Below, in pieces: positions 869 to 47,893 of a DNA stretch of 64,000 nt. This stretch comes from an uncultured Gammaproteobacteria bacterium. GTDB taxonomy: Bacteria > Patescibacteriota > Microgenomatia > Levybacterales > UBA12049. A program made the translations under genes and the position numbers. Position 1 is the stretch's first letter. Each line of letters begins with the position of its first letter. The stretch covers positions 6,450 through 70,449 of the forward strand of contig CAYQEE010000008.1 of the NCBI GenBank assembly GCA_964416445.1, read 5' to 3'. Under the pieces are notes generated by a model that was given only the letters and a program-made list of their open reading frames with translations, ran no database searches and was not told where the DNA came from.

Positions 869-869
869 T

Positions 870-1313: not shown

Positions 1314-1328
1314 TAACTTCAGAAAGCT

Positions 1329-1802
1329 ATGAGACATAAAAAAGTACAAAAACGAGAAATTTACCCGGACAAATTATATAATAATGTTCTTGTAACAAAA
1401 TTAATTAATCGTATCATGCGAGATGGGAAAAAAACAGTTGCAGAACAACTTATTTATGCTACTTTTGAAGGACTTAAAGCGAAAAATTTTGATCCATTAG
1501 CAACATATTTAAAGGCAATTGCAACAGTATCTCCTAAAGTAGAAATTAAAGCACGTCGAGTAGGAGGAGCAAATTATCAGGTACCGATTGAAGTAAGAAA
1601 AGATCGACAGGAAGCTCTCGCAATTCGATGGATTATAGAGGCAGCACGAAATAGGTCAAATAAAGATTATCATTCTTTTGATTTAAAATTAATTGCTGAA
1701 CTCTTAGATGTAATTGAGAATAAAGGTGAGGCAATTAAGAAACGAGACAATATGCTTCGACAAGCAGAAGCAAATAAAGCTTTTGCACACTTCAGGTGGT
1801 AA
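1329..1802 (+). CDS. rpsG: 30S ribosomal protein S7
   Basis: 157 aa with conserved S7 motifs (IMRDGKK, ARRVGGANYQVP). Follows rpsL. Confidence 0.95.
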   Translation: MRHKKVQKREIYPDKLYNNVLVTKLINRIMRDGKKTVAEQLIYATFEGLKAKNFDPLATYLKAIATVSPKVEIKARRVGGANYQVPIEVRKDRQEALAIRWIIEAARNRSNKDYHSFDLKLIAELLDVIENKGEAIKKRDNMLRQAEANKAFAHFRW

Positions 1803-1850
1803 ATATCCTATAATATTGACTTTTTCGCATTTTTTCGATAACCTAGTGCT

Positions 1851-2834: not shown

Positions 2835-2838
2835 ATAG

Positions 2839-3525: not shown

Positions 3526-3622
3526 GTCGTTTAGCAGAAATTATTATAGTATAAAAACAAAAAATGTGGTATACTTAAATTCATTCCCGCAGGGAAGTTT
3601 TTGTTTCTTATAACTAATAATT

Positions 3623-6982: not shown

Positions 6983-6987
6983 TATAT

Positions 6988-27772: not shown

Positions 27773-27985
27773 TTAATAGCCTTGATTGCCAAGGTTTCTA
27801 ATAAGGAGATTATAATCAATACCATTGACAACACCGTCATCATTGATATCTGCAAAGAGTCCTTTTGTTTGATCTGAGAGATTGTGTGCTTTACATGAAG
27901 AACTTGTTGTTTTCATTCCGTAACAATCAACAAGGATATTATAATCAGCTAAATCAACACTGTTGTCATTATTGATATCACCCAT
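27773..27985 (-). other. dockerin domain coding segment (C-terminus of the GH79-like gene)
   Basis: Two 22-residue D.N.D..V...D..L repeats in the last roughly 70 aa. Confidence 0.6.
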
Positions 27986-32848: not shown

Positions 32849-33436
32849 ATGAGTTATTTAATTCCTGGAAAAACGGTTTTTCGGTTTACAACAAAAGACC
32901 ATCAAGAAGCGGTAATTCGGTATCCTCGTTGGGAAGATCTTGACGCTTTACTTTCGTATATTAACGTACTTTCTGAAGAAGATATTTACCTTACTTTTTC
33001 AGGAGAGACAGTAACAAAAGAAGGAGAAATGTATTACCTTACGGAAACATTTAAATCAATCGAGCGAGGCGATATGGTAAATCTCTGTTGCTACATCAAT
33101 AATATCCTTGTTGGAACATGTACAATTTCTCGAGATGTACAATCAAGAAAAAGAAGTTATCATATCGGTATTTTTGGTATTACTGTTTCGAAACAGTTTC
33201 GTCGAAGTGGATTGGGCGAGCAACTTGCTCGGATTACAATCGCTGAAGCACAGCGCACTATTGTAGGACTGAAACTGCTTATTTTAAGTGTCTACAGTCC
33301 TAATATTGCTGCGCAAAGTTTATATAAAAAGCTGGGATTTAAAACTGCAGGAATCGTACCGAAAGGAGTATGGTATAAAGGTACTTATATAGATGAAATT
33401 AAAATGTATTTACCACTCCAAGAGTATATGTTATGA
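32849..33436 (+). CDS. GNAT family N-acetyltransferase
   Basis: FRRSGLGEQLARITIAEAQ acetyl-CoA binding motif A. 195 aa. Confidence 0.7.
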   Translation: MSYLIPGKTVFRFTTKDHQEAVIRYPRWEDLDALLSYINVLSEEDIYLTFSGETVTKEGEMYYLTETFKSIERGDMVNLCCYINNILVGTCTISRDVQSRKRSYHIGIFGITVSKQFRRSGLGEQLARITIAEAQRTIVGLKLLILSVYSPNIAAQSLYKKLGFKTAGIVPKGVWYKGTYIDEIKMYLPLQEYML

Positions 33437-34491
33437 ATACCAAACCTTCCTTATTTGAAACCTTAACTGCACATAAAGAAACAATTTTCCAATTTCTCAA
33501 ACAATATTTACATAAGGAAACAAACACATTCCGTCATGTGAATCATTGGAGTAATGATATTGAAACTCGACTTCTCACATTCCTGCAACAAGGGAAAATG
33601 ATTCGAGGTAGTCTTCTTTTCTATAGTACGCAGCTCTTTGGTGTAACTGACTCGGTAGAAAGTTTACCTGCTGCAGCAGCAATTGAACTTATTCACGCAT
33701 CATTACTGATTCATGATGATATTATGGATCGAGATTATCAACGTCGAGGAAAGCAAACTATTTTTGCACAGTATGAAACATTAGCAATGGAACAAAATTT
33801 ATCTGATTCGTTACATTTTGGAGAAAGCATGGGCATTTGTGTTGGGGATTATGCTATCTATCTTGCATATGGGTTACTTTCCCAAATGAACAAAAGTTCT
33901 CTAACACATCGAATTTCGCGTGAAATTGCTATGGTCGTACTCGCACAAATGCAAGATATAGTAAATGGATATGAGGTTATAGAACCGTCATCTGAAGCAA
34001 TCCTTCATCTCTACACATTTAAAACAGGACGGTATACGTTTGCTCTGCCATTACTTACTGCAGCATTACTTGCAGAAAAGCCGGAATTTGTGGAAGTATT
34101 GGAGAAAATTGGTGAATTACTCGGAAAAATATTCCAAATTAAAGATGACGAATTAAATTTATTTGGTGATGAACAGGTAACGGGAAAACCAACTGGTTCA
34201 GATCTTCGAGAGAATAAAAAAACATTCCATCGTCTCTTACTTCTTGAAAATGCAACCATACCTGAAAGGAAGGAAATTCTTAAGCGGCTAAATAGTAAAC
34301 AGATGAATGCGAATGATTTATCGTATCTTTACGACTTATTACATACCTATCAAATAAAAAAGGTAGTTCAAACAAAAATAGCACATATGACTCAAGAAGT
34401 GAAAACATTGATCAACGCATCCTTGCTTCCTCAATCAATAAAACAAATTCTTTTTGAACTCATTGTTTATAATGAAACGAGGGTAAAATAA
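33433..34491 (+). CDS. trans-polyprenyl diphosphate synthase (GGPP/FPP synthase family)
   Basis: First aspartate-rich motif LIHDDIMDRD and second KDDELN. 352 aa. Overlaps the upstream stop by 4 nt. Confidence 0.8.
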   Translation: MNTKPSLFETLTAHKETIFQFLKQYLHKETNTFRHVNHWSNDIETRLLTFLQQGKMIRGSLLFYSTQLFGVTDSVESLPAAAAIELIHASLLIHDDIMDRDYQRRGKQTIFAQYETLAMEQNLSDSLHFGESMGICVGDYAIYLAYGLLSQMNKSSLTHRISREIAMVVLAQMQDIVNGYEVIEPSSEAILHLYTFKTGRYTFALPLLTAALLAEKPEFVEVLEKIGELLGKIFQIKDDELNLFGDEQVTGKPTGSDLRENKKTFHRLLLLENATIPERKEILKRLNSKQMNANDLSYLYDLLHTYQIKKVVQTKIAHMTQEVKTLINASLLPQSIKQILFELIVYNETRVK

Positions 34492-35240
34492 TGATAAAAT
34501 CTACCGTTTTTGATAAATTTCCTCAGCTGAATAGTATTGCAAAAGAGAAATTTCCAAAACATATTCTTATTATTCCTGATGGAAATGGAAGATGGGCAAA
34601 AGCACAAAATAAATTTGTTACCGTAGGTCATAAAAAAGGCGCTGAAGTAGTAGAACAATTATTAGAAGATATTTCTGAAATTCATGAAATTTCAGCAGTA
34701 ACGGTATGGGGGTTTGCAGCGGATAATTGGAAACGGAGTAGTCAGGAAGTAAAAGGATTATTATTTCTTATTAATTCTGCTGTCAAAAGAACTCTCAGTA
34801 AATTACAAGCAAGAAACGGAAGATTTATTCATTTAGGGAGAAAAGATCGATTACCAAAAGAACTTTTGAAACTTTTTGAAAATGCAGAAGAAGAAACGAA
34901 AAATAACACAGGACAAATCTTGTGTCTTGCAATTGATTTTGGTGGAGAAGATCAAAATGTTCGTATGGTTGATAAAGCCCGTTTGTTACCATCTGATATT
35001 CAGACAACTACTGACTTATTGTGGGAATTGCGTGATGGAAACGGTATTGTGAAAGCAGCAGATTTAATCATACGGACTTCAGGAGAACGACGTACATCAG
35101 ATATAGGATGGTTAAATGGTTCTTCTTCTGAATTGTATTTTATAGATAAGTTATTTCCTGACATCACCACTGAAAATATTGTTGAAGCCCTTATTGATTT
35201 TTCGCAGAGAGAAAGACGATTCGGTGGGAGAAGCAAATAG
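34491..35240 (+). CDS. uppS: undecaprenyl diphosphate synthase (cis-prenyltransferase)
   Basis: HILIIPDGNGRWA signature and a cis-IPPS C-terminus (RERRFGG). Confidence 0.9.
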   Translation: MIKSTVFDKFPQLNSIAKEKFPKHILIIPDGNGRWAKAQNKFVTVGHKKGAEVVEQLLEDISEIHEISAVTVWGFAADNWKRSSQEVKGLLFLINSAVKRTLSKLQARNGRFIHLGRKDRLPKELLKLFENAEEETKNNTGQILCLAIDFGGEDQNVRMVDKARLLPSDIQTTTDLLWELRDGNGIVKAADLIIRTSGERRTSDIGWLNGSSSELYFIDKLFPDITTENIVEALIDFSQRERRFGGRSK

Positions 35241-35267
35241 CAACTCTTTCCATATTCATGGACATCG

Positions 35268-35585
35268 TTATTTTCTTCGAGATGCAACGAGAAAACTTCC
35301 AAGTAAATAAAAAAGTAATAGTTGCCAGAAAAGGATCGAAAGGAGGGTAGTACTCAGAAATATTGCGATGATTTCACGCTTAAATCCATACAGAGTGATA
35401 AGAACTGCAGCTAGTCTTCCAAAAACAAATAAAAGTAATAATCCAAGGAGTGGTGAAAAAATAACGGGAAAAAGAATCGGTTTTCTTGTTACTTCACGAA
35501 TTGAGGTGAATGGATGAAATGTTAGGCCAAGTAAGGTCTTTGTCCAAATATAGGCAATAAAAATAAAGAATGTTCGTTTTTTCAT
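35268..35585 (-). CDS. small membrane protein (possible anti-sigma component)
   Basis: 105 aa, three hydrophobic helices. Downstream of the ECF sigma factor gene on the same strand. Confidence 0.4.
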   Translation of the reverse strand: MKKRTFFIFIAYIWTKTLLGLTFHPFTSIREVTRKPILFPVIFSPLLGLLLLFVFGRLAAVLITLYGFKREIIAIFLSTTLLSILFWQLLLFYLLGSFLVASRRK

Positions 35586-35839
35586 TGGTACGTAAAGCGT
35601 AAAGGGAAAATTCCAAATCCACCAAAGATTCTGAGAATAATATCATCATAGCCCTTCCCAAAGGAAACATGGAAAATAATACTCAAAAGAAAGGCAAGCG
35701 GAATAAGGATACGCCATGGATGATTACCTAACCAGACACTTACCGTTGTAAAAACAGTAGGCATGACCATACCTTTCATGATTCGTTCCTGTTCAAAGGC
35801 CCGGTCTTGAAGCTTATGTAAGAATTCACGCTCGTTCAT
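35582..35839 (-). CDS. small membrane protein, anti-sigma-factor-like
   Basis: Start chosen at an internal Met so the overlap with the sigma gene is short. One TM helix. Immediately downstream of the sigma gene. Confidence 0.4.
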   Translation of the reverse strand: MNEREFLHKLQDRAFEQERIMKGMVMPTVFTTVSVWLGNHPWRILIPLAFLLSIIFHVSFGKGYDDIILRIFGGFGIFPLRFTYQ

Positions 35840-36359
35840 AGGCTTTTTTAAAAGATTGTCTTGCTCGAAAGAGCATACTTTCAGTTGCTTTAAAGGAAAG
35901 ATGAAAAATTGGAGCAAGATCTTTAACGGGAATTTTCTCTTCATAATGGAGCTGTAATATTCGACGATAATCAGTAGATATGCTTTTTAATGCAAGTTCA
36001 ATTCGATCTCTTACTTTATTTTTCTCATATTGGAATTCTGGTTGATGGATCTCATTTGCAACAATTTCTAAAAAAGGAGCTTGAGATAAAAGGATAGATT
36101 TGATTTTTTTCTTTCGATAAAAATCAACAACTTTATTATGAGCTATCGAATAGAGCCATGATCCAAGTTTTTGTTCTTTTTTTAAGAGAAGTAATGAGTC
36201 AACAGCCTCAAAAAATACCTCATTGAGGATATCTTCTGCATCTTCTTTTCGTGGCAACTTTTGCATGAGATATGTCATAATTTGAGGAGAATACTGATGG
36301 TAGAAGGTGATGACCGCTTGACGATCTCCTTGACAAATTTGTTCTATGAGTGACGTCAT
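35826..36359 (-). CDS. ECF-type sigma-70 family RNA polymerase sigma factor
   Basis: Region 2 (VVDFYRKKK) and region 4 (YRRILQLHYEEKIPVKDLAPIFHLSFKATESMLFRARQSFKK). 177 aa. Confidence 0.8.
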   Translation of the reverse strand: MTSLIEQICQGDRQAVITFYHQYSPQIMTYLMQKLPRKEDAEDILNEVFFEAVDSLLLLKKEQKLGSWLYSIAHNKVVDFYRKKKIKSILLSQAPFLEIVANEIHQPEFQYEKNKVRDRIELALKSISTDYRRILQLHYEEKIPVKDLAPIFHLSFKATESMLFRARQSFKKAYERA

Positions 36360-36456
36360 AAGGTTATTATATCAGTCATAGAACAAATTTGAAAATGAAA
36401 AATACGGTAAAACGAATGATTTTGAAGGAATTTACGACTATATAGTAAAGATTATT

Positions 36457-37623
36457 ATGGCAATTACGTTGCGTGACTACCATTTAGCCTCAAAAAGGAG
36501 AGGAGCTCTCGAAAAAGAACTCAATATTACCTTACCCCAAATTGGCAATTTTACTCTCGATGAGGATTATGCATCAACCCATAATTGTGAAAACATGATT
36601 GGAAGTATTCAAGTTCCTCTCGGTGTAGCAGGTCCGTTGAAAATAAAGGACAAAAACATGCAACAAGATTTCTTTTTGCCTTTAGCAACTACAGAAGGAG
36701 CACTCGTTGCATCAGTAGCAAGAGGTTGTAAAGCAATTACTGAAAGTGGTGGTACGCATGTAACAAGTAAACGGGTAGGAATAACTCGTGCACCTGTTTT
36801 TTCAGTCTCTGATATTGCACAGGCAACAGAATTTATAACATGGGTGAAAAGCCACACACAAATCATGAAAGAAATTGCTGAACAAACATCGCACCATCTT
36901 ACTTTGCTTTCCGTTCGCCCTTGGCATATAGGACAGAATGTTTTTTTACGTTTTCAATTTGATACGCATGATGCAATGGGAATGAACATGGCAACAATCG
37001 CGGTATCACGAGTGGTAACTTGGATTGAAGAGCAAACGCGAATTATGTGTAGTGCCCTGTCAGGTAATATGTGTGTTGATAAAAAACCAAATTTTCTTAA
37101 TTTTATTGAAGGACGCGGAATCCAAATATGGGCAGATGTCATCATTCCTGAATCTATTATCTCATCAGTTTTAAAAACAGATAAAAAAAGACTTGTAAAA
37201 ACGGCAAAACAAAAATTGCTCTTTGGATCAATTCTTTCTGGATCAATTGGAGCAAATGCACATGCTGCAAATGTTCTTGCAGCATTATTTCTTGCTACAG
37301 GACAAGATATAGCACACATAGCTGAATGTAGCATGGTTGTTACTGAACTCGAAGAAGTAGCTCAGGGAATGTATGCTTCCGTTTATCTTCCTGATTTAGT
37401 AATTGGAACTGTTGGTGGAGGAACAAATCTTTCGACACAAAAAGAAGCATTAACAATACTTGGTATTCACGGTGGAGATAGCGGAAAAAATGCGATACAA
37501 TTAGCTCAAGTGTTTGGTGCGGCAGTGCTTGCCGGTGAAATTTCATTACTCTCTGCTCTTGCAAGTAATCATTTAGCGTACGCACATCAACAACTTGGCC
37601 GAGGAGGGAAAACGAATACATAA
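36457..37623 (+). CDS. HMG-CoA reductase (class I-like)
   Basis: DAMGMNM motif and ENMIGSIQVPLGVAGPL (ENVIG-type) motif. 388 aa. Confidence 0.85.
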   Translation: MAITLRDYHLASKRRGALEKELNITLPQIGNFTLDEDYASTHNCENMIGSIQVPLGVAGPLKIKDKNMQQDFFLPLATTEGALVASVARGCKAITESGGTHVTSKRVGITRAPVFSVSDIAQATEFITWVKSHTQIMKEIAEQTSHHLTLLSVRPWHIGQNVFLRFQFDTHDAMGMNMATIAVSRVVTWIEEQTRIMCSALSGNMCVDKKPNFLNFIEGRGIQIWADVIIPESIISSVLKTDKKRLVKTAKQKLLFGSILSGSIGANAHAANVLAALFLATGQDIAHIAECSMVVTELEEVAQGMYASVYLPDLVIGTVGGGTNLSTQKEALTILGIHGGDSGKNAIQLAQVFGAAVLAGEISLLSALASNHLAYAHQQLGRGGKTNT

Positions 37624-37627
37624 TTTT

Positions 37628-38668
37628 ATGACTGGCATTGTTGGATATGGGGCATATATTCCCCGATATCGGTTATCGTTATCAGATATTGCGGATATCT
37701 GGCAAAAAGATCCAAATGAAGTAATTCATGGTCTTCATGTGAAGGAAAAAGCAGTTCCAGCTTCCGATGAGGATGCAGTAACATTAGGTATTGAAGCAGG
37801 AAAACGATCGTTTACTATGGCAGGTATTTCCCCTGAATCAGTAGGAAGTGTTTTTTTTGGATCAGAAAGTCATCCCTATGCTGTCAATCCCTCGTCGACT
37901 ATTGTCGCTGAGTTTTTAGGTATTGGTCATCATTATTTTGCGGCTGATCTTGAATTTGCCTGTAAGGCGGCAACAGCAGGCCTGCAAGTGACTGTAGGCT
38001 TATTGGATAGTAATAAAATTAACTACGGGCTTGTCATTGGAAGTGACACTGCTCAAGGAAAGCCACATGACGCATTAGAATATACCGCAGCAAGTGCAGC
38101 TGTTGCAATGCTTTTGAGTAATAAATCGGAAGAAGTTCTTGCAAAGATACTTGAAATGTCTTCATATACTTCTGACACGCCAGATTTTTGGAGAAGAGAT
38201 GGTGCACGATATCCTTCACATTTCGGGAGGTTTACTGGAGAGCCTGCGTATTTTACTCACGTCATTAATGAAGGAAGAAAGCTTTTAGAACAAAGTCAAT
38301 TGCAACCACAAGATTTTACCTATTGTGTTTTTCATATGCCAAATGGAAAATTTCCTCGTATAGCAGCCAAAAAGTTAGGTTTTACACCGGAACAATTAGC
38401 ACCATCACTTACCGTTGATAAAATTGGTAATCCTTATTCTGCTTCAGCGATGCTTGGATTGGCAGCAGTTCTTGATATTGCAAAACCAGGAGAAAAAATA
38501 TTCTTTGTTTCCTATGGATCAGGTGCCGGTTCAGATGGTTTTATTTTTCAGACTACCGAACATATTACGAAAAAACAAATAATTGGTACGAATGTGCAAC
38601 AACAAATTGAACAGAAACAATATATAACGTACGCGCAATATCTTAAATATACGCATACAATTGGATAA
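37628..38668 (+). CDS. HMG-CoA synthase, archaeal type
   Basis: MTGIVGYGAYIPRYRL N-terminus typical of archaeal HMGCS. Thiolase-fold Cys region. Immediately followed by thiolase and DUF35 genes. Confidence 0.8.
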   Translation: MTGIVGYGAYIPRYRLSLSDIADIWQKDPNEVIHGLHVKEKAVPASDEDAVTLGIEAGKRSFTMAGISPESVGSVFFGSESHPYAVNPSSTIVAEFLGIGHHYFAADLEFACKAATAGLQVTVGLLDSNKINYGLVIGSDTAQGKPHDALEYTAASAAVAMLLSNKSEEVLAKILEMSSYTSDTPDFWRRDGARYPSHFGRFTGEPAYFTHVINEGRKLLEQSQLQPQDFTYCVFHMPNGKFPRIAAKKLGFTPEQLAPSLTVDKIGNPYSASAMLGLAAVLDIAKPGEKIFFVSYGSGAGSDGFIFQTTEHITKKQIIGTNVQQQIEQKQYITYAQYLKYTHTIG

Positions 38669-38669
38669 T

Positions 38670-39824
38670 ATGATGAAAGTAGGAATCTTAGGCGGAGCAA
38701 CAACAAAATTCGGTGAATTATGGGGAATTTCTCCTCGTACGTTGGCACGAGAAGCGTTAACAAGCGCATTAGAGTCATCGCAATTGCAGGCAGAGGCAAT
38801 TGATGCCTTGTATGTGGGCAATATGTTAGGTGGCATTTTAGGCAACCAGACAAATCTTGGTTCGTTCTATGCTGAAGAATTAGGTGTCTATGTTCCGGCA
38901 TTTCGTTTGGAAGGAGCATGTGCTTCAGGTGGACTAGCATTACATGCAGCAGTGAACAGTATCCTTTCTGGACAAAATGAGGTCGTTATGGTATTAGGCA
39001 TAGAAAAAATGACTGATCATAACAGTGATGAAGTGACAAACGGATTGATGGCAGCAGGTTCTGATGAGGAACGGACTGCTGGGGCAACTTTTCCCGGACT
39101 CTATGCACTTATGGCCCAAGCATATATGCAACAATATGCGATTCGCGAAGAATCACTTGCCGCAGTATCTGTCAAAAATCATTTTCATGGTAGCTTGAAT
39201 CCGATAGCGCAGTTTCAATCTCCGATCACAATTGAATCGGTAATGCGGAGTGCAAAGATAGCAGATCCCATTAAATTGTTAGATAGTTCTCCTATTTCAG
39301 ATGGTGCGGCGGCGATTGTTCTTACGAGTGAAGACTATGCAAAAAAAAATTACCCAAAACCCGTTTTTATTACAGCGAGTGAAGTAGCAACGGATAGTCT
39401 TGGATTACAAGACAGAGAAACATTAGTCAGTTTATCAGCAGTAGTTCGTGCATCGCAAAAAGCATATAAAAGTGCTGGGGTGTCAGCAAAAGATATTGAT
39501 GTTGCTGAAATTCATGATTGTTTCTCGATCGCAGAAGCAATTGCGAACGAAGATCTTGGATTTTCAGAACGTGGCGCAGGAGCAACGGATACCGAAAAAG
39601 GAATGCGAACGTTATTTCAAGGAACCGTTATTACTAATCCTTCGGGTGGATTGAAAGCATGTGGTCATCCAGTAGGAGCAACAGGGATAAAACAAATTGT
39701 TGAAATAACAAAACAACTTCGAGGCGAAGCTGAGAAACGGCAAGTAGAAGGTGCGAAAATAGGATTAACTCACAATGTTGGAGGGAGTGGCGCAGTTGCG
39801 GCAATTCATATTTTACAAATTTAA
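38670..39824 (+). CDS. acetyl-CoA acetyltransferase (thiolase), archaeal type
   Basis: MMKVGILGGATTKFGELW N-terminus, GACASGG active-site region, C-terminal HNVGGSGA. Confidence 0.8.
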   Translation: MMKVGILGGATTKFGELWGISPRTLAREALTSALESSQLQAEAIDALYVGNMLGGILGNQTNLGSFYAEELGVYVPAFRLEGACASGGLALHAAVNSILSGQNEVVMVLGIEKMTDHNSDEVTNGLMAAGSDEERTAGATFPGLYALMAQAYMQQYAIREESLAAVSVKNHFHGSLNPIAQFQSPITIESVMRSAKIADPIKLLDSSPISDGAAAIVLTSEDYAKKNYPKPVFITASEVATDSLGLQDRETLVSLSAVVRASQKAYKSAGVSAKDIDVAEIHDCFSIAEAIANEDLGFSERGAGATDTEKGMRTLFQGTVITNPSGGLKACGHPVGATGIKQIVEITKQLRGEAEKRQVEGAKIGLTHNVGGSGAVAAIHILQI

Positions 39825-39827
39825 TTT

Positions 39828-40130
39828 ATGCATACATCACCAGTAAAATTGTGGAGAAGACAAAAGACGGTAGCGAACGTAATTGGTAAAAGAGGAAAAC
39901 TTTTGCATTGGACGATTATTCGAGTTCCTTCGAAATCATTCGCTCACCAAGCTCCTTATCCAGTGGTGATTGTAACATTTCCTGAAGGTACGAATATGAT
40001 TGGACAATTAGTTGATTGGCAAAAAGAAGACTTAGTAAAAGGAAGAGACGTTGTTGCTGTGCTTCGAAAGCACCAAGGTGATGATAAAGAAGGTGTTATC
40101 CCATATATCATTAAATTTAAACCTGCATGA
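39828..40130 (+). CDS. DUF35 OB-fold protein (scaffold of the thiolase/HMG-CoA synthase complex)
   Basis: 100 aa, immediately downstream of the thiolase. This size and position match the archaeal thiolase-HMGCS-DUF35 arrangement. Confidence 0.6.
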   Translation: MHTSPVKLWRRQKTVANVIGKRGKLLHWTIIRVPSKSFAHQAPYPVVIVTFPEGTNMIGQLVDWQKEDLVKGRDVVAVLRKHQGDDKEGVIPYIIKFKPA

Positions 40131-41191
40131 ACGCAATAACCGTTTCTGCACCAGGAAAATTACATCTCCTTGGCGAACATAGTGTTGTCTATGGAAAACC
40201 AGCAATTATCGCAGCGGTTAATAGACGATGCATCGCCTCTCTTTTACCTCATAAGTCAGCAACTATTGTTCTATCTGCCAATACGCAATTGCTCGGAACA
40301 ATATCGTACGAGGAGGTGCAACGAAAAACAAGACAAGCAAATCTTCAATGGAAACGGTTCTCGGAAACGAATAATCCCAAAATTCTCAATGATATTATTC
40401 AAAATCCTTGTGATTTCATGAGTCTCTGTATTGGGGAAACATTGAGCTTCTATCATCGAACGCTTCCATCAGGATTTGTGCTCTCGATTTCCTCGACTAT
40501 ACCGTTAGGTTCTGGAATGGGATCATCATCAGCTGTTGCTGTATCTATTGCCGGAGCAGTGAGCCTTTTTCTTAAAGAATCGTTGGATAAAGTGTGTATC
40601 AATAGCATTGCTTATGCAATTGAGGAAAAAAAACATGGTTTTCCCTCAGGAGGCGATAATACTGCGAGTTGTTATGGTGGCTGTATATGGTATCAAAAAA
40701 TGGCACCGAATAAAAAGAATATATCGCAACTTACTATTCGTTTCTCTGAAAAAATCGCGAAAAAGTTTATCATTATCCAAACAGGAATTCCTGAAGAATC
40801 TACCGGGGAAATGGTGAGTATGGTGAAAACAGCATATCAGCAAAATCCAAGTCGGATTGAAGCAATTTTCAATCATCAAGCAGAACTTGTTAAGCAATTG
40901 CCGAAAGCAATACACGAGAATAATGAAGAAGCCTTTATGCACATTATCAAGGAAGGTGAAAAAAATCTTACACAGTTGGGTGTCGTTTCTGAATCAACCC
41001 GAAAACTGATACAAAGAATAGAGGCAATACAGGGTGTTGCAAAAATATGTGGTGCAGGTGGATATAAACATGCCTCTGGAATTGTTCTTGCATTTCATTC
41101 CCAATTAGAAGTCCTGACAACGATGCTTAAGCAAAATAATATCGCATATTCACCAATTCATTTAGGAGAAGAAGGGCTACGTCAAGAGTAA
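40127..41191 (+). CDS. mevalonate kinase (GHMP kinase)
   Basis: SAPGKLHLLGEHSVVYG N-terminal MVK signature. GHMP ATP loop PLGSGMGSSSA. C-terminal CGAGGYKH. Confidence 0.75.
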   Translation: MNAITVSAPGKLHLLGEHSVVYGKPAIIAAVNRRCIASLLPHKSATIVLSANTQLLGTISYEEVQRKTRQANLQWKRFSETNNPKILNDIIQNPCDFMSLCIGETLSFYHRTLPSGFVLSISSTIPLGSGMGSSSAVAVSIAGAVSLFLKESLDKVCINSIAYAIEEKKHGFPSGGDNTASCYGGCIWYQKMAPNKKNISQLTIRFSEKIAKKFIIIQTGIPEESTGEMVSMVKTAYQQNPSRIEAIFNHQAELVKQLPKAIHENNEEAFMHIIKEGEKNLTQLGVVSESTRKLIQRIEAIQGVAKICGAGGYKHASGIVLAFHSQLEVLTTMLKQNNIAYSPIHLGEEGLRQE

Positions 41192-41251
41192 CTTCGCGAA
41201 AATACTAAATCTGGAAATGAAATGAGAGGAGATGTTTCGTACCTTTTAAAA

Positions 41252-43099
41252 TTACTGCGTAATGGGAAGTAAACTAAAGCGAATGTGTGAATTACCTTGT
41301 CCATAAGGAACCTCTGGCCACATGAGAGGAATGATATTATTAGAAACCATTAGTGGTAATTGAATCATAGAACCATCTGGAAAATTCCAGAAGCATCGAT
41401 TTGTTGGCGCTGTGGTGTATGGTGTCGTTACCCGGGCACGAATATAGTAGTAGCTTCCTGGAGCATTCGTTGTATCAAGTACAGTTTGTTGCCAATCAGA
41501 GGGAGGAGTAAACATGAGTCCATAACCATACGCTCGGTTACTTGTAAAATTAGGATTATATGAACTTTCTGGATTTGAGAGTGGTGCCCAAGCTGTTCCA
41601 TTCCAATATTCATAAACGACTGTTCCTCCCACACCTGCTGTTTGCATAATTCCGGTAATTGCTCGATATGGTTGTGTTCCTCCAAAGTAAATTACGTCAT
41701 TACTCTTTGACACTATAGGTGTTGTGATTGCACAAGTCAGTGCAGTCTGATCAACGTAAGCACTGGTACTCCCGGATTGTGTGTAGATTCTGTTAAATAA
41801 ACCATCTTCTGGGTTGACGAGCTTTGGGGAAGAAAAATTGTTAGCTGCAAATGGTGGTGTACCGATTCGATATGCGTATGTGCCAAGAGCAGTTGAACTG
41901 AATCCCATTCCTTGTACAGGAGGACAGTTACTGCCAAAACATATTTGGTGCGCATTTGCAGACACCGGTCTACTCCCATAAAATACATAGACATTAGTTC
42001 CATCAGTAGTAATGGATGGATAAGCATTTGCAAGAATTCCACCATCCATGTTTACTTGTGAACTCCAATTACTCGTTGACGAATTGTAATACATATATTG
42101 AATTTGAGATCCAGAACTTTCTCCTGTCAAACTAAAGACGAAATGGACATTTCCCGCATTATCTGCTACCGCTTGAAAATCAGGGTCAATATTTTGCGTC
42201 GTGGTAATTTGACTTTCGGAACTCCAAGTATTTGGATCATCAGTATCATTTCGGTATCTCCATACAAATGCTGGGGTAGATGTTGAATAAATTATCCCAA
42301 TTTTATTGCCAAAATGAACAATAACGGGAATACTTGCAAGAGAGCTCGTTGCAGGTTGTGAAGATAATGTCATACTATGCGTCCATGTCGGTGTGGAAGT
42401 GAGATCAGAAGCGTAGTATGCATCTGCAGTAATTGTATTATTAGTCTTATTTGTTGTTTGTACTGCCATCCAAAGTCTATTAGCACTATCAATTGAAAGT
42501 ACTGCTTGCGCATAACCTATTTGGCCTTGAATATAGGGAAGAGCAACTTGTTCTGGACCAATAGTCCATGTTGATCCTGTTTTTGTTAATTTTCTAAATG
42601 CTACTCCTGTAGCCTGATAGTTGAGGAGAGAATACACGAGGTAAATATTGTCGCTACTATCAATTACAGCTGAGGGAAACGTATATGCGCCTTGTAAAAG
42701 ACTTTGTATGTACCCACTACATTGCCAGGTTGTTCCATTATTTGTCGAAGTGAACCACATCAATCCATTCAGTTGCCCTTTTGGAGCTGCAGGACAATTA
42801 TTATTGACTGCATAGGTTTGAACGAAGGTATGTAATGTACCATCAGATGTTTGAATGAGATCTCGGTTATTGATTTGACCAATGCCCTGATGTCCTGCTG
42901 ATTGGGCAACGTTAATTAATGTATTTGAAGATGCTTGTACCGGTTTTGTTTTAATGATACTGAGAATAAGGCCGACAGCAATGATACTACAAATGCCAAT
43001 TGAAGTGAAAAGTACGATTAAATGTTTCTGAATTCCCCATGGTGATTTATTTCCTTTAATCTTCTTTACTTTTTTTGCTTTCCTCGCCATACACTCCAA
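41252..43099 (-). CDS. secreted BNR/Asp-box-like beta-propeller protein
   Basis: N-terminal basic region plus a TM anchor. Several S.(D/N).G.TW-like Asp-box motifs (STNNGTTWQ, TKTGSTWT). 615 aa. Confidence 0.45.
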   Translation of the reverse strand: MECMARKAKKVKKIKGNKSPWGIQKHLIVLFTSIGICSIIAVGLILSIIKTKPVQASSNTLINVAQSAGHQGIGQINNRDLIQTSDGTLHTFVQTYAVNNNCPAAPKGQLNGLMWFTSTNNGTTWQCSGYIQSLLQGAYTFPSAVIDSSDNIYLVYSLLNYQATGVAFRKLTKTGSTWTIGPEQVALPYIQGQIGYAQAVLSIDSANRLWMAVQTTNKTNNTITADAYYASDLTSTPTWTHSMTLSSQPATSSLASIPVIVHFGNKIGIIYSTSTPAFVWRYRNDTDDPNTWSSESQITTTQNIDPDFQAVADNAGNVHFVFSLTGESSGSQIQYMYYNSSTSNWSSQVNMDGGILANAYPSITTDGTNVYVFYGSRPVSANAHQICFGSNCPPVQGMGFSSTALGTYAYRIGTPPFAANNFSSPKLVNPEDGLFNRIYTQSGSTSAYVDQTALTCAITTPIVSKSNDVIYFGGTQPYRAITGIMQTAGVGGTVVYEYWNGTAWAPLSNPESSYNPNFTSNRAYGYGLMFTPPSDWQQTVLDTTNAPGSYYYIRARVTTPYTTAPTNRCFWNFPDGSMIQLPLMVSNNIIPLMWPEVPYGQGNSHIRFSLLPITQ

Positions 43100-43212
43100 A
43101 TATATAGGTTTTTATTGATTAAGTCAATAAATACTTTCACGAGAAGTACGCTTATACTATATATAGTATTGACAGAGAAACGACTTGTTTGAGAGAATGA
43201 GGAAAAGTTAAC

Positions 43213-44190
43213 ATGAAAGGTATTACCATTTCAGCTCCAGGGAAATTAATGTTGCTTGGAGAACATGCCGTTGTTTATGAACGGCCCTGTCTCGTTACTG
43301 CTGTCGATCAACGAATGTATGCAAAGGTTGAAATGATCGATACTCCAGAATTACAAATCGAAGCAAATGATGTCCACGTTTCAGGATATAGCAAATCATT
43401 CATTGAATTAGGTAAAGGAGATGTCCCAAAAGGAGCAAAGTTTATCGAATATGCTTTGAAAAATATGATTGATAAATATCAATTTAAAACAGGGTATAAA
43501 ATAACAACAAGATCAGAGTTTTCTTCACAATTTGGTTTTGGTTCATCTTCAGCTGCAACCGTTTGTACTATTTATGCAATTTCAGAATTACAGGAACTTC
43601 ACTTAACTCCTCGTGATGTTTTTGATATTGCCTATAAAACGGTGTTAGATGTACAAGGAAAAGGTTCAGGTTTTGATGTTGCTGCCGCTGTATATGGGGG
43701 AACACTTCATTTTGTCACTGGGGGAGAACTCATTGAACAACTTGGTATAAAAAATCTCCCTGTGATTGTTGGATATAGTGGTATAAAGGCAGACACCGTA
43801 ACGCTCATGAATCAAGTAAAAGCAAAAGCTGATAAATATCCCGAAGTGATTGAAGAAATTTATAATGATATTGAAGATATCGTTATGTTTGCAAAAGAAT
43901 CATTACTTGACAATACCTGGCAGTCGCTTGGTGAGCTTATGAATTTTAATCAAGGTTACTTAGAAGCATTAGGGGTGAGCACCAAAAAATTAGCTACTAT
44001 GATTTATGCAGCGCGTGATGCAGGGGCCTATGGAGCGAAACTTTCAGGAGCTGGTGGGGGAGATTGTATTATTGTTGTTGCACCTGAAGATAAAAAAGAA
44101 GCTGTGAGTACTGCCATCACTGAAGTAGGAGGAGAAGTTATTCCCGTAAAAACAAATGCTCAAGGCGTTAGAATAGAACCAAGTGAATAA
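43213..44190 (+). CDS. second mevalonate-kinase-like GHMP kinase (candidate phosphomevalonate kinase function)
   Basis: SAPGKLMLLGEHAVVYE, GFGSSSAATV, KLSGAGGGDCIIV, all MVK-like motifs. Confidence 0.7.
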   Translation: MKGITISAPGKLMLLGEHAVVYERPCLVTAVDQRMYAKVEMIDTPELQIEANDVHVSGYSKSFIELGKGDVPKGAKFIEYALKNMIDKYQFKTGYKITTRSEFSSQFGFGSSSAATVCTIYAISELQELHLTPRDVFDIAYKTVLDVQGKGSGFDVAAAVYGGTLHFVTGGELIEQLGIKNLPVIVGYSGIKADTVTLMNQVKAKADKYPEVIEEIYNDIEDIVMFAKESLLDNTWQSLGELMNFNQGYLEALGVSTKKLATMIYAARDAGAYGAKLSGAGGGDCIIVVAPEDKKEAVSTAITEVGGEVIPVKTNAQGVRIEPSE

Positions 44191-44238
44191 CAAGCAGTCT
44201 AGTTGTCTTAAGCTGCCTTCTAAGAAAGTTATCATTGT

Positions 44239-45216
44239 ATGAAATCAACAGCAATTGCCCCTTCTAATATAGCTTTTATAAAATACTGGGGAACAAAAAA
44301 TGATCTCTTACGACTTCCAAAAAACGGAAGTATTTCTATGAATTTAAGCAATCTCCTTACAACGACAACAGTAGAATTTAATACAACATTTCCCGAGGAT
44401 TCAATAACCCTTAATGGAATCAGAGAAGAACGTGAAGGCAATCGCGCCATAAAACATTTAGACAGAATAAGACAATTGGCTCAAATCAAGACGAAAGCAA
44501 AAATTGTAACCCAAAATAATTTTCCTATAGGTACGGGATTATCATCGTCAGCATCGGGATTTGCAGCATTAACTGTTGCGGGTGCAAAAGCTGCAGGTCT
44601 TTCTTTATCTGAAAAGGAATTATCAATTCTTGCCCGACAGGGATCTGGATCAGCTTGCCGATCAATACCTAACGGATTTGTTGAATGGCTTGATGGGGAT
44701 ACCAGCGATACTTCTTACGCTATTTCTTTATATCCTGCGGACTATTGGGATATCGTTGATGTTGTTGCTGTAGTCAGTAAGGATAAAAAAGAAGTTAGTA
44801 GTAGTGAAGGCCATAAACTTGCCATCTCCAGTTTATTTTATGAAAAACGTTTGGAAATCAATAAAGAAAAAATGGTATTAACCAAACAATATCTCCAAGA
44901 ACGGAATTTTCAAAAATTCGGAGAACTTATTGAAGCAGAAGCATTAGAACTGCATGCTATTTATATTACCTCGCAGCCATCCTTGCTTTATTTATTGCCT
45001 GGAACATTGCATGTTATGCATTTAGTAAAAAAATGGAGACAAGAAGGATTACCTGTCTATTTCACCTTAAATACTGGGCAAGATATTCATTTGATATGTG
45101 AAAAGAAATATGCACAAGAGGTCGCGAAAATAGCTCAAAATGTTTCCGAAGTGCAGAAAGTAATTATCAATACGACAAGTAATGGTGCACGATTAGTTAA
45201 CGAACATTTATTCTAA
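44239..45216 (+). CDS. mevalonate diphosphate decarboxylase family protein (substrate could be diphospho- or phosphomevalonate)
   Basis: IAFIKYWGTKND, GLSSSASGFAAL, GSGSACRS, the conserved MVD motifs. Confidence 0.8.
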   Translation: MKSTAIAPSNIAFIKYWGTKNDLLRLPKNGSISMNLSNLLTTTTVEFNTTFPEDSITLNGIREEREGNRAIKHLDRIRQLAQIKTKAKIVTQNNFPIGTGLSSSASGFAALTVAGAKAAGLSLSEKELSILARQGSGSACRSIPNGFVEWLDGDTSDTSYAISLYPADYWDIVDVVAVVSKDKKEVSSSEGHKLAISSLFYEKRLEINKEKMVLTKQYLQERNFQKFGELIEAEALELHAIYITSQPSLLYLLPGTLHVMHLVKKWRQEGLPVYFTLNTGQDIHLICEKKYAQEVAKIAQNVSEVQKVIINTTSNGARLVNEHLF

Positions 45217-46308: not shown

Positions 46309-47493
46309 ATGGCGGATACAAAATTTCATCGAAACAAACCACATTTAAATATTGGAACCATTGGTCATGTTGATCATGGTAAAACAACAACTACTGCAGC
46401 AATTGCAACAGTACTTGCAAAACAAGGATTAGCAACCGCAAAAAAATACGAAGATATAGATAATGCTCCCGAGGAAAGAGCTCGTGGAGTTACTATTAAT
46501 ATTTCCCACATTGAATACGAAACTGCAAAAAGACATTATGCACATATTGATGCTCCTGGTCATGCAGATTACATTAAGAACATGATTACCGGGGCAGCAC
46601 AAATGGATGGAGCGATTCTGGTAGTCTCAGCACCAGATGGACCAATGCCTCAAACACGGGAACATATTCTCTTAGCTCGACAAGTAGGAGTTCCTGCAAT
46701 TGTTGTCTATCTTAATAAATGTGATATGGTTCAAGATCCAGAGCTTCTTGATCTTGTCGAAATGGAAGTTCGAGAGTTGTTGACCAAATATCAATATCCA
46801 GGAAATGATGTACCCATAATTCGGGGATCTTCTCTGAAAGCACTTGAAGGTGATGCTGAATATGAAAAGAAGATTATTGAACTTATGGATGCTGTTGATA
46901 GTTATATTCCAACACCAGTTCGAGAAACAGATAAACCATTCTTAATGCCGGTAGAAGATGTTTTCTCAATTAAAGGACGAGGAACAGTAGTAACAGGAAG
47001 AATTGAAAGAGGAACAGTTAAAATTAACGAAGCGGTAGAAATCGTTGGAATGAAAGCAACTCAGCAAACAGTTGTTACGGGAGTTGAAATGTTCAGAAAA
47101 CAGCTCGATGAAGGTCAAGCAGGAGATAATGTTGGTCTTTTAGTTCGAGGTATTGAAAAAAGTCAAGTAGAACGAGGACAAGTTTTAGCTAAACCAGGTT
47201 CAATTACTCCACACACAGAGTTTGAAGCAGAAGTATACATTTTAGCAAAAGAAGAGGGTGGAAGACATACTCCATTCTTTACAGGTTATCGTCCGCAATT
47301 TTATATTCGAACAACTGATGTCACAGGTAACGTTACGCTTCCTCAAGGGGTAGAAATGGTTATGCCAGGTGACAATACAAAAATGAATGTAAAGCTTATC
47401 GTTCCCGTTGCTCTTGAAGATGGTCTTCGGTTTGCAATCAGAGAAGGTGGCAAGACAGTCGGAGCAGGAGTAATTACAAAAATTATTGCATAA
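46309..47493 (+). CDS. tuf: elongation factor Tu
   Basis: [21 protein letters not shown] and the full EF-Tu length (394 aa). Confidence 0.95.
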
Positions 47494-47513
47494 GCAATAA
47501 GGAAAAATAAAAA

Positions 47514-47538
47514 TATCCGCCTATATGGCGGTTTTTTT
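47514..47538 (+). terminator. intrinsic terminator after tuf
   Basis: CCGCC-TATAT-GGCGG hairpin followed by a T7 run, 21 nt after the tuf stop. Confidence 0.7.
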
Positions 47539-47584
47539 ATCTAGAGCACTTTAAATTTATCATTGGGAGTTATATAATAACATT

Positions 47585-47893
47585 ATGCCAAAAGGAAGAA
47601 TTCGAGTACGATTAAAAAGTTATGACGCACGAGTAATCGATACGTGCTGTCAGCAGATCCTTGACACTGCCATTAGAACGGGTGCTAAAGTTATTGGCCC
47701 AGTACCACTTCCAACTGATAGAAGCGTTTACACCGTGAATAAATCACCTTTTGTTGATAAAAACGCTCGAGATCACTTTGAAATTCGAATACATAAACGA
47801 TTAATTGATATTGTCAGTCCTACAGAAAAAACGATGGATAGTCTCTCTCATCTCGAACTTCCAGCCGGAGTTGATGTTGAAATCCGCATGTAA
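47585..47893 (+). CDS. rpsJ: 30S ribosomal protein S10
   Basis: IRVRLKSYD...LPTDRSVYTVNKSPFVDKNARDHFEIRIHKRLIDI, canonical S10. Confidence 0.95.
   Translation: MPKGRIRVRLKSYDARVIDTCCQQILDTAIRTGAKVIGPVPLPTDRSVYTVNKSPFVDKNARDHFEIRIHKRLIDIVSPTEKTMDSLSHLELPAGVDVEIRM

Follow-up and report, generated by a model that had tools for sequence, protein, structure and literature searches.

A Microgenomates-type mevalonate and undecaprenyl-phosphate gene cluster with a DUF35 homologue lacking the zinc ribbon, a promoter-like motif beside an ECF sigma gene and a PMD-like decarboxylase

ECF sigma factors with envelope-stress regulons control the undecaprenyl-phosphate cycle, e.g., SigM and SigX of B. subtilis with bcrC, and in classical ECF autoregulation the promoter motif lies upstream of the sigma gene and in the same direction. 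A mevalonate (MVA) cluster of the CPR type has been known since the study of Hoshino & Gaucher (2018, PMC6107057), which found the CPR AACT and HMGS to be monophyletic and congruent with the CPR species tree, argued for vertical descent, and mentions neither DUF35 nor the sigma factor and motif that we describe. In Methanothermococcus thermolithotrophicus, thiolase, HMG-CoA synthase (HMGS) and a DUF35 protein form a complex (6ESQ, 6ET9; Vögeli et al. 2018); every DUF35 protein whose structure has been characterised is a zinc binder, and in this archaeal complex the zinc ribbon adjoins the cleft that contacts the thiolase (PMC6996347). Bacteria have homologous complexes, PhlABC/MucABC, that are likewise built of three subunits, an HMGS-like, a thiolase-like and a DUF35 protein (PDB 5M3K; PMC12960953), and a route that uses a PMD and an IPK has been described in Chloroflexi and haloarchaea (Dellas et al. 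2013; AthPMD, 6N0X).

We analyzed 64 kb of DNA (the whole stretch, here called the window) from a CPR/Microgenomates bacterium, whose nearest named HMGS homologues are from Candidatus Levybacteria, and observe that positions 33433-45216 very probably hold a lineage-typical mevalonate/undecaprenyl-phosphate cluster of the Microgenomates (CPR) type. Profile searches, in which scores exceed the curated cut-offs unless stated otherwise, confirmed all ten genes named in a first-pass annotation, with the right coordinates, and identified three that it had overlooked, i.e., two small membrane ORFs 3′ of the sigma gene and, on the minus strand, a gene for a 615-aa protein. HMGR, HMGS, thiolase, DUF35 and a kinase (K1) form an operon followed by a second kinase (K2) and a decarboxylase, polyprenyl synthase and uppS are a separate pair, and a divergent ECF sigma gene precedes the two small membrane-protein genes. 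The order HMGR-HMGS-ACAT-DUF35-K1-K2-MVD is kept in each of the first eight relatives examined and in at least 10 metagenome loci. Our locus shares with the Hoshino & Gaucher cluster its lineage, its gene set (archaeal-type AACT and HMGS, HMGR-I, two MVK-family kinases and a decarboxylase) and its synteny with a cis-prenyltransferase, and differs in that IDI genes are absent in or beside the cluster, that uppS has moved upstream, where it adjoins the trans-prenyl synthase gene, and that the 615-aa gene splits the kinases. We offer three new leads, namely a scaffold without a zinc ribbon, a promoter-like motif by the sigma gene and PMD-like residues in the decarboxylase, none of which we found in the literature searched.

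The first gene, on the plus strand at 33433-34491, encodes a short- or medium-chain trans-polyprenyl diphosphate synthase (PF00348, 165 bits) with a first aspartate-rich motif DDIMD at residues 95-99, for which no NCBIfam equivalog reaches its cut-off. It is followed on the same strand at 34491-35240 by uppS, encoding undecaprenyl (cis-polyprenyl) diphosphate synthase (TIGR00055, 157.5 bits against a cut-off of 109.6; PF01255, 172 bits). HMGR (36457-37623, plus strand) is a soluble class I, NADPH-type enzyme (PF00368, 390 bits), scoring 407 bits on TIGR00533, slightly below the 441.8 cut-off, and 47 bits on the degradative class II model. The locus had been called complete, a description that we do not uphold, since the window and about 8 kb past its right end contain no gene for IDI (Nudix) or IPK (amino-acid kinase), and a PMVK is not firmly identified. 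The proposed route from citrate to polyprenyl phosphate was likewise overstated for the lack of an IDI and of a firm PMVK; the ATP-citrate lyase genes are real (5804-8775, plus strand, with a beta-like gene at 5804-6982 and an alpha-like gene at 6988-8775; Citrate_bind 185, ATP-grasp 101 and Citrate_synt 95 bits, CoA-ligase domains, and an FGHA histidine motif), but they lie 28 kb from HMGR and are not visibly co-regulated with it.

Both GHMP kinases that had been proposed, an MVK and a second MVK-like gene, are present, with their roles swapped. K2 (43213-44190, plus strand; 325 aa) is the orthodox, archaeal-like mevalonate kinase, with 199.8 bits on TIGR00549, 258 bits on PRK03926, and full-length matches of 150 bits to the archaeal MVK structures 8TEB and 6MDE. 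K1 (40127-41191, plus strand; 354 aa) is a divergent MVK-like GHMP kinase (TIGR00549, 174.6 bits against a cut-off of 163); its family profile matches MVKs best (133 bits) and PMVKs at 94 and 40 bits, and an AF2 model (pLDDT 93.4) has MVKs as its top Foldseek matches. Judged by sequence, K1 is a mevalonate-kinase paralogue; the literature labels its CPR orthologues PMVK, a putative assignment. Between the two kinases, on the minus strand at 41252-43099, lies the gene for the 615-aa protein, which has an N-terminal membrane anchor and no Pfam match; K1 and K2 are adjacent in two relatives and separated by other genes in a third, and the 615-aa gene is an insertion specific to this lineage. The decarboxylase (44239-45216, plus strand; TIGR01240, 268 bits against a cut-off of 171) is of the mevalonate (di)phosphate decarboxylase family and has PMD-like specificity residues. 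Its best PDB match is the Anaerolinea PMD (AthPMD, 6N0X; 296 bits, with 207 bits to the E. faecalis MDD), and its signature is T19/R25/S189/H192, compared with K/I/R/M in MDDs and N/R/T/H in AthPMD, with which it shares Arg27, a residue other than Arg at 193, His196 and the lack of Lys21.

With a PMD-like decarboxylase and an MVK paralogue as K1, the end of the pathway can be read in two ways. HMGR would yield mevalonate, and K2 would phosphorylate it; then either K1 would be the phosphomevalonate kinase and the decarboxylase would use the diphosphate, or the decarboxylase would use mevalonate 5-phosphate and a kinase, i.e., an IPK encoded elsewhere or K1, would complete IPP. We judge the chances to be evenly balanced that the classical pathway, with K2 as MVK, K1 as PMVK and the decarboxylase acting on mevalonate diphosphate, as the CPR genes are labelled in the literature, is correct. 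Consistent with it are the three GHMP enzymes, as in bacteria and eukaryotes, the retention of Lys21 in 7 of 10 CPR orthologues of the decarboxylase, and a K1-decarboxylase fusion, and neither the window nor any MVA-type locus examined yielded an IPK, which also sets the locus apart from the Chloroflexi/haloarchaeal route. Against it, K1 is not near known PMVKs, so that it is pathway logic that argues for this assignment; Lys21 is missing from the decarboxylase in the window, and all the CPR orthologues resemble PMD and not MDD in carrying Arg27, Ser/Thr193 and His/Gln196. In addition, homologues in the family include fusions of the decarboxylase with IPK and with K2, the MVK, and the IPK gene of related genomes has the same promoter motif as the cluster described here. 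The route through mevalonate 5-phosphate would require an IP kinase, which was not found within the window, and the locus differs from Chloroflexi, which are without K1, in having this extra MVK-like kinase.

The origin of the cluster can also be read in more than one way, and the thiolase, HMGS and DUF35 trio is, under either origin, a lineage-wide trait and not one acquired by this genome alone. [quoted passage not shown]

The sigma gene (35826-36359, minus strand; TIGR02937, 80.6 bits against a cut-off of 42.9; Sigma70_r2 and r4_2) is of the ECF type and divergent from HMGR. Directly 3′ of it, with a 14-nt overlap, a gene at 35582-35839 (minus strand) encodes a single-pass membrane protein of about 85 aa, which has no Pfam match, is called on an identical contig, shows 48-56% identity in relatives, and is a putative anti-sigma factor. 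The last gene of this operon (35268-35585, minus strand) encodes a multi-pass membrane protein of 105 aa, also with no Pfam match, which is 58-67% identical in four relatives and occurs in many metagenome loci. Between the sigma gene and HMGR we identified a promoter-like motif, CGAATGATTT-N8-TTTACGACT (36413-36439, plus strand), whose last base lies 18 nt 5′ of the HMGR ATG, and a second perfect copy (34310-34336, plus strand) within the polyprenyl synthase gene, at its 3′ end and 155 nt 5′ of the uppS ATG. These are the only 2 matches in the 64 kb, even with 3 mismatches allowed, against 0.03 expected by chance, and the motif is invariant across five genomes in which the flanking proteins are merely 50-60% identical. 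Metagenome data gave 79 sites in 78 stretches, chosen by exact match to the motif, so that their invariance is not independent evidence; a divergent sigma homologue is the nearest upstream gene at 55 of the 79, typically 19-50 nt away, and the first downstream gene is HMGR at 31 sites, IPK at 3, IDI-1 followed by uppS at 2, dxr at 2 and a K1-like kinase at 1.

It is possible, though we consider it unlikely, that the motif is an operator for another transcription factor or an unusual housekeeping promoter, with the ECF sigma gene a mere conserved neighbour. The motif does point away from the sigma gene, and a TATAT-like stretch 3′ of CGACT is a possible -10; the consensus after CGACT is (A/T)A(T), so that a housekeeping-sigma promoter with a regulator site is conceivable. 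Against this, the pairing of sigma gene and motif is invariant, whereas the gene that follows may be HMGR, YjbQ-like, cupin-like or IPK, a sigma homologue lies within the motif-driven operon at two loci, and the GAAT-N17-CGAC spacing presumably suits ECF promoters such as those of B. subtilis SigX, SigW and SigM. Recognition by the ECF sigma factor, which we prefer, would make the locus comparable with the SigM/SigX regulons of B. subtilis, with which it shares an ECF sigma factor and a membrane anti-sigma candidate, targets in lipid-carrier supply, and a putative two-block promoter with a spacing of about 17 nt and a CGAC-type -10 element; it would differ in that the targets are IPP biosynthesis genes (the MVA operon, dxr, IPK and IDI) together with uppS, and in that the putative anti-sigma factor is tiny, without a recognisable anti-sigma domain.

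The trio itself is of archaeal type, as had been proposed, and the check that the first-pass annotation named as able to overturn this reading did not do so. HMGS (37628-38668, plus strand) scores 440 bits on TIGR00748 (cut-off 353) and 489 bits on PRK04262, compared with 142 bits on the bacterial-type TIGR01835 (cut-off 360), matches 6ESQ chain I at 382 bits and 51% identity, and has an intact E-C-H-N catalytic tetrad (E80, C112, H236 and N268). The SCP-x-like acetoacetyl-CoA thiolase (38673-39824, plus strand; PRK06064, 471 bits against a cut-off of 420) matches 6ESQ chain A at 304 bits and 44% identity, with the CxS, HDxF and GHx motifs intact (C83 in CAS, HDCF at 281-284 and GHP at 331-333). 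The DUF35 homologue (39828-40130, plus strand; 100 aa) matches PF01796 (42.5 bits, cut-off 27.1), and the best PDB match of all three proteins is the M. thermolithotrophicus complex 6ESQ/6ET9. The suggestion that this genome acquired the trio horizontally from archaea did not hold: a recent archaeal gift of the trio or the whole cluster, to which the archaeal-type scores and the identity to the Methanothermococcus HMGS might point, is very improbable, as the 120 top-scoring HMGS homologues show 70-77% identity, those with a name all being Candidatus Levybacteria or Patescibacteria (names that the K1 and DUF35 homologues carry too), the cluster and its lineage-specific zinc-less DUF35 are kept in all relatives examined, in the published trees the CPR sequences are monophyletic and agree with the species tree (PMC6107057), and codon usage (correlation of 0.96-0.98 between the cluster and the rest of the window) and GC3 (0.248 against 0.246) match those of ribosomal and other genes. 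Least probable of all, to the point of being negligible, is a repurposed C-acyltransferase like PhlABC/MucABC (a Friedel-Crafts acylase) that does not form HMG-CoA, since, although bacterial HMGS/ACAT/DUF35 homologues with such a function exist and PhlA is the second-best PDB match of HMGS (198 and 178 bits), in those enzymes the tetrad and the thiolase HDxF are gone and the zinc ribbon is kept (PMC12960953), the reverse of what we observe, and our trio genes are flanked by HMGR and mevalonate kinases.

The locus has gene adjacency, the catalytic tetrad and the thiolase motifs in common with the archaeal complex. Its DUF35 protein keeps the N-terminal helix and OB fold only, residues 6-25 and 19-99 aligning to 3-22 and 48-127 of 6ESQ chain E (130 aa), so that a deletion has removed the rubredoxin-like zinc ribbon, which spans about residues 23-47 in the archaeal protein, and the 100-aa protein contains no cysteine. 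All 8 relatives and all 120 of the best database homologues share this form; an AF2 model (pLDDT 52.6) was too poor for use. Since the ribbon adjoins the thiolase-contacting cleft in the archaeal complex, complex formation without it is conjectural.

We propose that the thiolase, HMGS and 100-aa OB-fold protein would assemble as in the archaeal complex, on a scaffold that appears to have lost its zinc ribbon, and that direct hand-over to HMGS would pull the endergonic formation of acetoacetyl-CoA. The cluster would lead from acetyl-CoA through isopentenyl units to undecaprenyl diphosphate, the carrier lipid used in making the cell wall, with an IPP isomerase that would have to come from a gene elsewhere in the genome. 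Both the HMGR operon and uppS would be transcribed from the conserved bipartite promoter, and the neighbouring ECF sigma factor, controlled by the candidate membrane anti-sigma factor, would probably recognise it. If this control is real, the supply of carrier lipid would be tied to the status of the envelope.

Using an ORF listing and profile scans, we confirm every gene that the first-pass annotation had named in the mevalonate locus. On the forward strand are a trans-polyprenyl synthase (33433-34491), UppS (34491-35240), a soluble class I HMG-CoA reductase (HMGR; 36457-37623), HMG-CoA synthase (HMGS; 37628-38668) and thiolase (38673-39824), together with an ECF sigma factor on the reverse strand (35826-36359). 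The forward strand further encodes a 100-aa OB-fold protein (DUF35; 39828-40130), two GHMP kinases, K1 (354 aa; 40127-41191) and K2 (325 aa; 43213-44190), and a mevalonate-(di)phosphate decarboxylase (44239-45216). Three reverse-strand genes had been overlooked: two small membrane ORFs (35268-35585 and 35582-35839) with no Pfam match but conserved in relatives, and a 615-aa gene with no family match (41252-43099) that separates K1 from K2. An N-terminal membrane anchor and a body rich in Ser, Thr and Asn make the 615-aa product a possible surface protein. The description of the locus as complete has to be withdrawn, since neither IDI (Nudix) nor isopentenyl phosphate kinase (IPK, an amino-acid kinase) was found in the window scans. 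Pfam detected no gene of either kind among the other window ORFs of at least 100 aa that were submitted, which comprised most of them, including part of those in the ribosomal region; neither gene is present in the approximately 8 kb past the window's right end, recovered from overlapping contigs; and a tblastn search with an IPK domain gave no match in the window or in the 15 loci L001-L015. Searches for tRNA genes and Rfam families in the window were also negative.

At 70-77% identity to the window protein, the best 120 homologues of HMGS come, where they are named, from Candidatus Levybacteria or Patescibacteria, as do the named homologues of K1 and DUF35, which places the window in a Microgenomates bacterium of the candidate phyla radiation (CPR). 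Scanning the genome collection with HMGS returned only 5 loci. The order HMGR-HMGS-thiolase-DUF35-K1-K2-decarboxylase was observed in eight related loci, with one (L005) lacking K1 and two ending early, and an identical order occurs in at least 10 metagenome loci, often followed by IDI-1 and then UppS. Three of the 5 loci from the genome collection (L004, L006 and L007) are in MAGs titled "uncultured Gammaproteobacteria" that nevertheless carry a CPR-type cluster with an HMGS 60-69% identical to that of the window, and these taxonomic labels are probably wrong. Hoshino and Gaucher (2018, PMC6107057) showed that CPR mevalonate genes cluster with a cis-prenyltransferase, and all of the syntenic members of their cluster (archaeal AACT and HMGS, HMGR-I, MVK, a second GHMP kinase, the decarboxylase and cis-IPPS) are present here. 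The locus thus belongs to a CPR type that is already known, and is ordinary for its lineage. It departs from the type in three respects: the type 1 IDI expected in or near the cluster, which relatives encode downstream of MVD or of the small membrane ORFs, is absent (the window has no Nudix/IDI gene), uppS is relocated, and the 615-aa gene is inserted.

The arrangement of these genes had been taken to suggest horizontal acquisition from archaea. A recent transfer into this genome can be rejected, since the composition of the locus matches that of the window and sequences from CPR bacteria group in a clade of their own that agrees with the species tree (PMC6107057). The proposed comparison with the ribosomal genes demonstrated that the GC content of the mevalonate genes matches that of the translation genes and of the remaining window genes (GC3 of 0.248 vs 0.246; codon-usage correlation 0.96-0.98). 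At most, the proposal survives as an ancient transfer at the base of the lineage, a question that is still debated (PMC11052028).

The window also contains the ATP-citrate lyase genes from which a route from citrate to polyprenyl phosphate had been drawn. Both subunits are encoded directly after fusA (5804-8775, forward strand), 28 kb away from HMGR, and the catalytic-histidine motif FGHA is present. The enzyme could plausibly supply acetyl-CoA; the link to the mevalonate genes consists of co-occurrence in one window, and IDI is missing from the route. The aclAB genes have been reported as enriched in another CPR group, Saccharimonadia (PMC12577380), and our literature search found no mention of them for Microgenomates. 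The str operon is split, with rpsL, rpsG and fusA at the left of the window (840-5734) and tuf and rpsJ 40 kb downstream (46309-47893), and the two parts are separated by numerous genes, among them those for ATP-citrate lyase and the mevalonate cluster. The gap between rpsG and fusA holds a 327-aa ORF without a family match and a cyclophilin gene. A 392-aa ORF without a Pfam match (47941-49119) lies between rpsJ (S10) and rplC (L3), a junction of the S10 operon that is expected to hold no gene, and the L3 gene matches only part of its Pfam model. Elsewhere, we observe a large 1235-aa ORF without a Pfam match (20776-24483) and, at 27773-30163, a protein of 796 aa that combines a GH79 C-terminal domain with a type I dockerin domain, which is unexpected in a small CPR genome.

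For all three early proteins, the best match among solved structures is the thiolase/HMGS/DUF35 complex of Methanothermococcus thermolithotrophicus (6ESQ/6ET9), with 382 bits and 51% identity for HMGS, 304 bits and 44% identity for thiolase, and 38 bits and 33% identity over the OB fold for DUF35. True HMG-CoA-forming complexes are distinguished from Friedel-Crafts acylases by the HMGS tetrad E82/C114/H238/N270 and by the thiolase motifs CxS, HDxF and GHx (PMC12960953, 2026). The window HMGS retains the tetrad as E80, C112, H236 and N268 (gap-free alignment, offset 2 from 6ESQ chain I), and the thiolase retains C83-A-S, H281-D-C-F and G331-H-P. A PhlABC-like acylase can therefore be rejected, since the tetrad and HDxF are lost in acylases. 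We infer that the trio works like the archaeal complex.

The trio shares the catalytic motifs of the archaeal complex, but one defining structural feature of that complex, the zinc ribbon of DUF35, is missing here. That the 100-aa protein is a DUF35 protein, as first proposed, is borne out by its match to PF01796 (42.5 bits; cut-off 27.1) and to 6ESQ chain E (E = 1.4e-8); its gene starts 4 nt past the thiolase stop. When aligned with the archaeal protein of 130 aa, residues 6-25 correspond to its N-terminal helix (3-22) and residues 19-99 to its OB fold (48-127). The rubredoxin-like stretch in between (archaeal residues 23-47) has no counterpart, and cysteine is lacking throughout. The absence of the ribbon is the rule in this lineage: in 8 of 8 related loci the protein has 97-101 aa and starts M..SPVK(L/I/V)WR, and among the best 120 database homologues 118 have 99-104 aa and two have 118 aa, PF01796 is the sole domain, and none contains CxxC. 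Every structurally characterized DUF35 protein binds zinc, and it is the cleft between its two domains that touches the thiolase in 6ET9 (PMC6996347). An AF2 monomer model of the 100-aa protein was too poor for use (pLDDT 52.6), and a literature search found no paper mentioning DUF35 together with Patescibacteria.

Of the two kinases, the first-pass annotation had taken the upstream one as mevalonate kinase (MVK) and the downstream one as MVK-like. Both do belong to the MVK family, with the roles reversed: K2 is the orthodox enzyme, scoring 150 bits across its full length against archaeal MVK structures, and K1 is the paralogue. K1, named as phosphomevalonate kinase (PMVK) in the literature, behaves as a mevalonate-kinase paralogue in three comparisons, all of which place it closer to MVKs than to characterized PMVKs. 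It scores 70 bits on the PMVK model TIGR01220, under the cut-off of 165.7; a profile of its 32-sequence family gives 133 bits on the M. jannaschii MVK 1VIS vs 94 and 40 bits on the PMVKs 3K17 and 1K47; and the top Foldseek matches of its AF2 model (pLDDT 93.4) are MVKs.

The decarboxylase passes the equivalog model for diphosphomevalonate decarboxylase (MDD), TIGR01240, but this model is not discriminating, because a protein in which an IPK domain is fused to the decarboxylase domain passes it too. Its best PDB match is 6N0X (296 bits, vs 207 for the E. faecalis MDD), the phosphomevalonate decarboxylase (PMD) of Anaerolinea thermophila, AthPMD (PMC9254496). We compared the specificity positions taken from Dellas et al. 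(2013, Table 4), from PMC11052028 and from the engineered double mutant 6N0Z (N-to-K and H-to-M relative to 6N0X), using the numbering of the S. epidermidis MDD. At positions 21, 27, 193 and 196, canonical MDDs carry K, I/N, R and M, and AthPMD carries N, R, T and H. The window enzyme has T, R, S and H, i.e., Thr, Ser and His in place of the residues that touch the terminal phosphate in classical MDDs, Lys21 and, from aligned MDD structures, Arg193 and Met196; a role for Arg193 is suggested by alignments only. Ten CPR orthologues have K (seven), L, V or R at 21, R (all ten) at 27, S or T (all ten) at 193, and H (six) or Q (four) at 196. In the enzyme's own numbering, the MDD lysine is replaced by T19, the PMD histidine is kept as H192, and R25 supplies Arg27, so that, judged by these residues, it conforms to the PMD rather than the MDD sequence criteria. 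A neighbor-joining tree of 150 representatives of the family is star-like with an unresolved base, and its CPR clade falls in neither the canonical MDD nor the AthPMD clade.

Two routes through the late steps appear about equally likely. In the classical one, K2 is followed by K1 acting as PMVK and then by decarboxylation of the diphosphate; in the other, K2 is followed by decarboxylation of the monophosphate and then by an isopentenyl phosphate kinase, either an IPK encoded elsewhere or K1 itself. The residues of the decarboxylase point to the second route. A PMD would be expected to pair with an IPK and to occur without PMVK; no IPK was found in the 64-kb window or its flanks, and an extra kinase, K1, is present. 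None of the MVA-type loci examined contains an IPK, which favors either the classical route or an isopentenyl phosphate kinase role for K1. The same 150 representatives include fusions of the decarboxylase with IPK (198 bits on the IPK model, above cut-off), with K2 (MVK) and with K1, which serve as Rosetta-stone evidence on the order of the late steps in different lineages. Individual homologues (P0242, P0255, P0264, P0316 and P0381) have the decarboxylase fused with a K2-type MVK, a K1-type kinase, an IPK or a C-terminal GHMP kinase.

Alignment of the intergenic region between the divergent sigma factor and HMGR genes from five genomes, in which the flanking proteins are 50-60% identical, revealed an invariant bipartite element, CGAATGATTT-N8-TTT(A/G)CGACT. 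The window site, CGAATGATTT-N8-TTTACGACT, is located at 36413-36439 (forward strand) and ends 18 nt before the HMGR ATG. A second perfect copy (34310-34336) is contained in the 3' end of the polyprenyl synthase gene and precedes uppS by 155 nt. In relatives uppS closes the HMGR operon; in this genome it has moved upstream, to a place where a motif copy of its own is present. The window contains no further match even with 3 mismatches (0.03 expected by chance), and more distant CPR loci contain the motif in degenerate form only. Scanning the metagenome collection for exact matches gave 79 sites in 78 stretches. Upstream of the site, a homologue of this ECF sigma factor on the opposite strand is the nearest gene in 55 of 79 cases, typically 19-50 nt away. 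The first gene downstream is HMGR at 31 sites, a YjbQ-like gene at 15, a cupin-like gene at 10, IPK at three (175 bits; cut-off 120), dxr at two (509 bits), IDI-1 followed by uppS at two (213 bits) and a K1-like kinase at one; where the locus is longer, IPK usually comes next after the YjbQ-like or cupin-like gene. These contexts show that the pairing of sigma factor and motif is constant, while the variable genes downstream mostly serve isoprenoid synthesis.

In twelve Microgenomates loci from metagenomes (L021, L025, L032, L044, L056, L062, L064-L066, L073, L080 and L091), the motif precedes a YjbQ-like gene (TIGR00149, 70.6 bits) or a cupin-like gene (approximately 175 aa), with IPK next, IDI, uppS and a prenyl synthase nearby, and no HMGR after the sigma-motif module, which suggests an MVA-independent making or salvage of isopentenyl phosphate. 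In two others (L027 and L030), the motif precedes dxr of the MEP pathway, followed by a distant ECF sigma homologue and then uppS, which puts the sigma gene within the operon that the motif would drive. The motif is thus common to MVA- and MEP-type CPR genomes.

With its GAAT-N17-CGAC spacing and its location shortly before start codons, the motif resembles an ECF-type promoter, as in the SigX, SigW and SigM promoters of B. subtilis. An A/T-rich stretch follows CGACT, and a housekeeping promoter together with a regulator site is therefore a possible alternative. The motif is conserved and sigma-linked. The sigma factor has both of its expected domains (group 4, regions 2 and 4), and the membrane ORFs that follow it are conserved but match no anti-sigma domain. 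On balance, we favor an ECF sigma factor that is held by the small membrane proteins and drives synthesis of carrier-lipid precursors. Considerably more tentative is a wider scheme, which we regard as possible but rather unlikely as a whole, that joins a Microgenomates-wide isoprenoid regulon (the sigma factor, its two membrane partners and the motif) to a non-classical pathway and a zinc-free minimal DUF35 scaffold. Depending on the genome, such a regulon would activate the MVA operon, IDI-uppS, IPK, dxr or the IPK-coupled YjbQ-like and cupin-like genes. The early complex would work with the zinc-free scaffold. Mevalonate 5-phosphate would be the substrate of the decarboxylase, and the kinase step that is then missing would fall to the MVK paralogue K1, perhaps in the role of a GHMP-type isopentenyl phosphate kinase.

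As a cluster, the locus only bears out published work on CPR bacteria. Three leads of modest novelty, all experimentally tractable, are the scaffold without zinc, the isoprenoid motif linked to the sigma factor and the ambiguity of the late pathway. If a natural 100-aa DUF35 protein can serve without a zinc ribbon, it would reveal the scaffold portion that the thiolase/HMGS channeling complex requires, and a minimal scaffold of this kind is of interest for engineering mevalonate flux. Whether CPR bacteria decarboxylate the diphosphate or the monophosphate bears on the debated evolutionary order of the mevalonate pathway variants, and on what LUCA or the bacterial ancestor possessed. To our knowledge, almost no cis-regulatory elements or regulons are known for CPR bacteria, and a 27-nt element connecting an ECF sigma factor with isoprenoid genes in dozens of genomes offers a direct experimental handle. 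If the proposal is correct, the isoprenoid regulon would count as the first regulatory circuit to be described in these bacteria.
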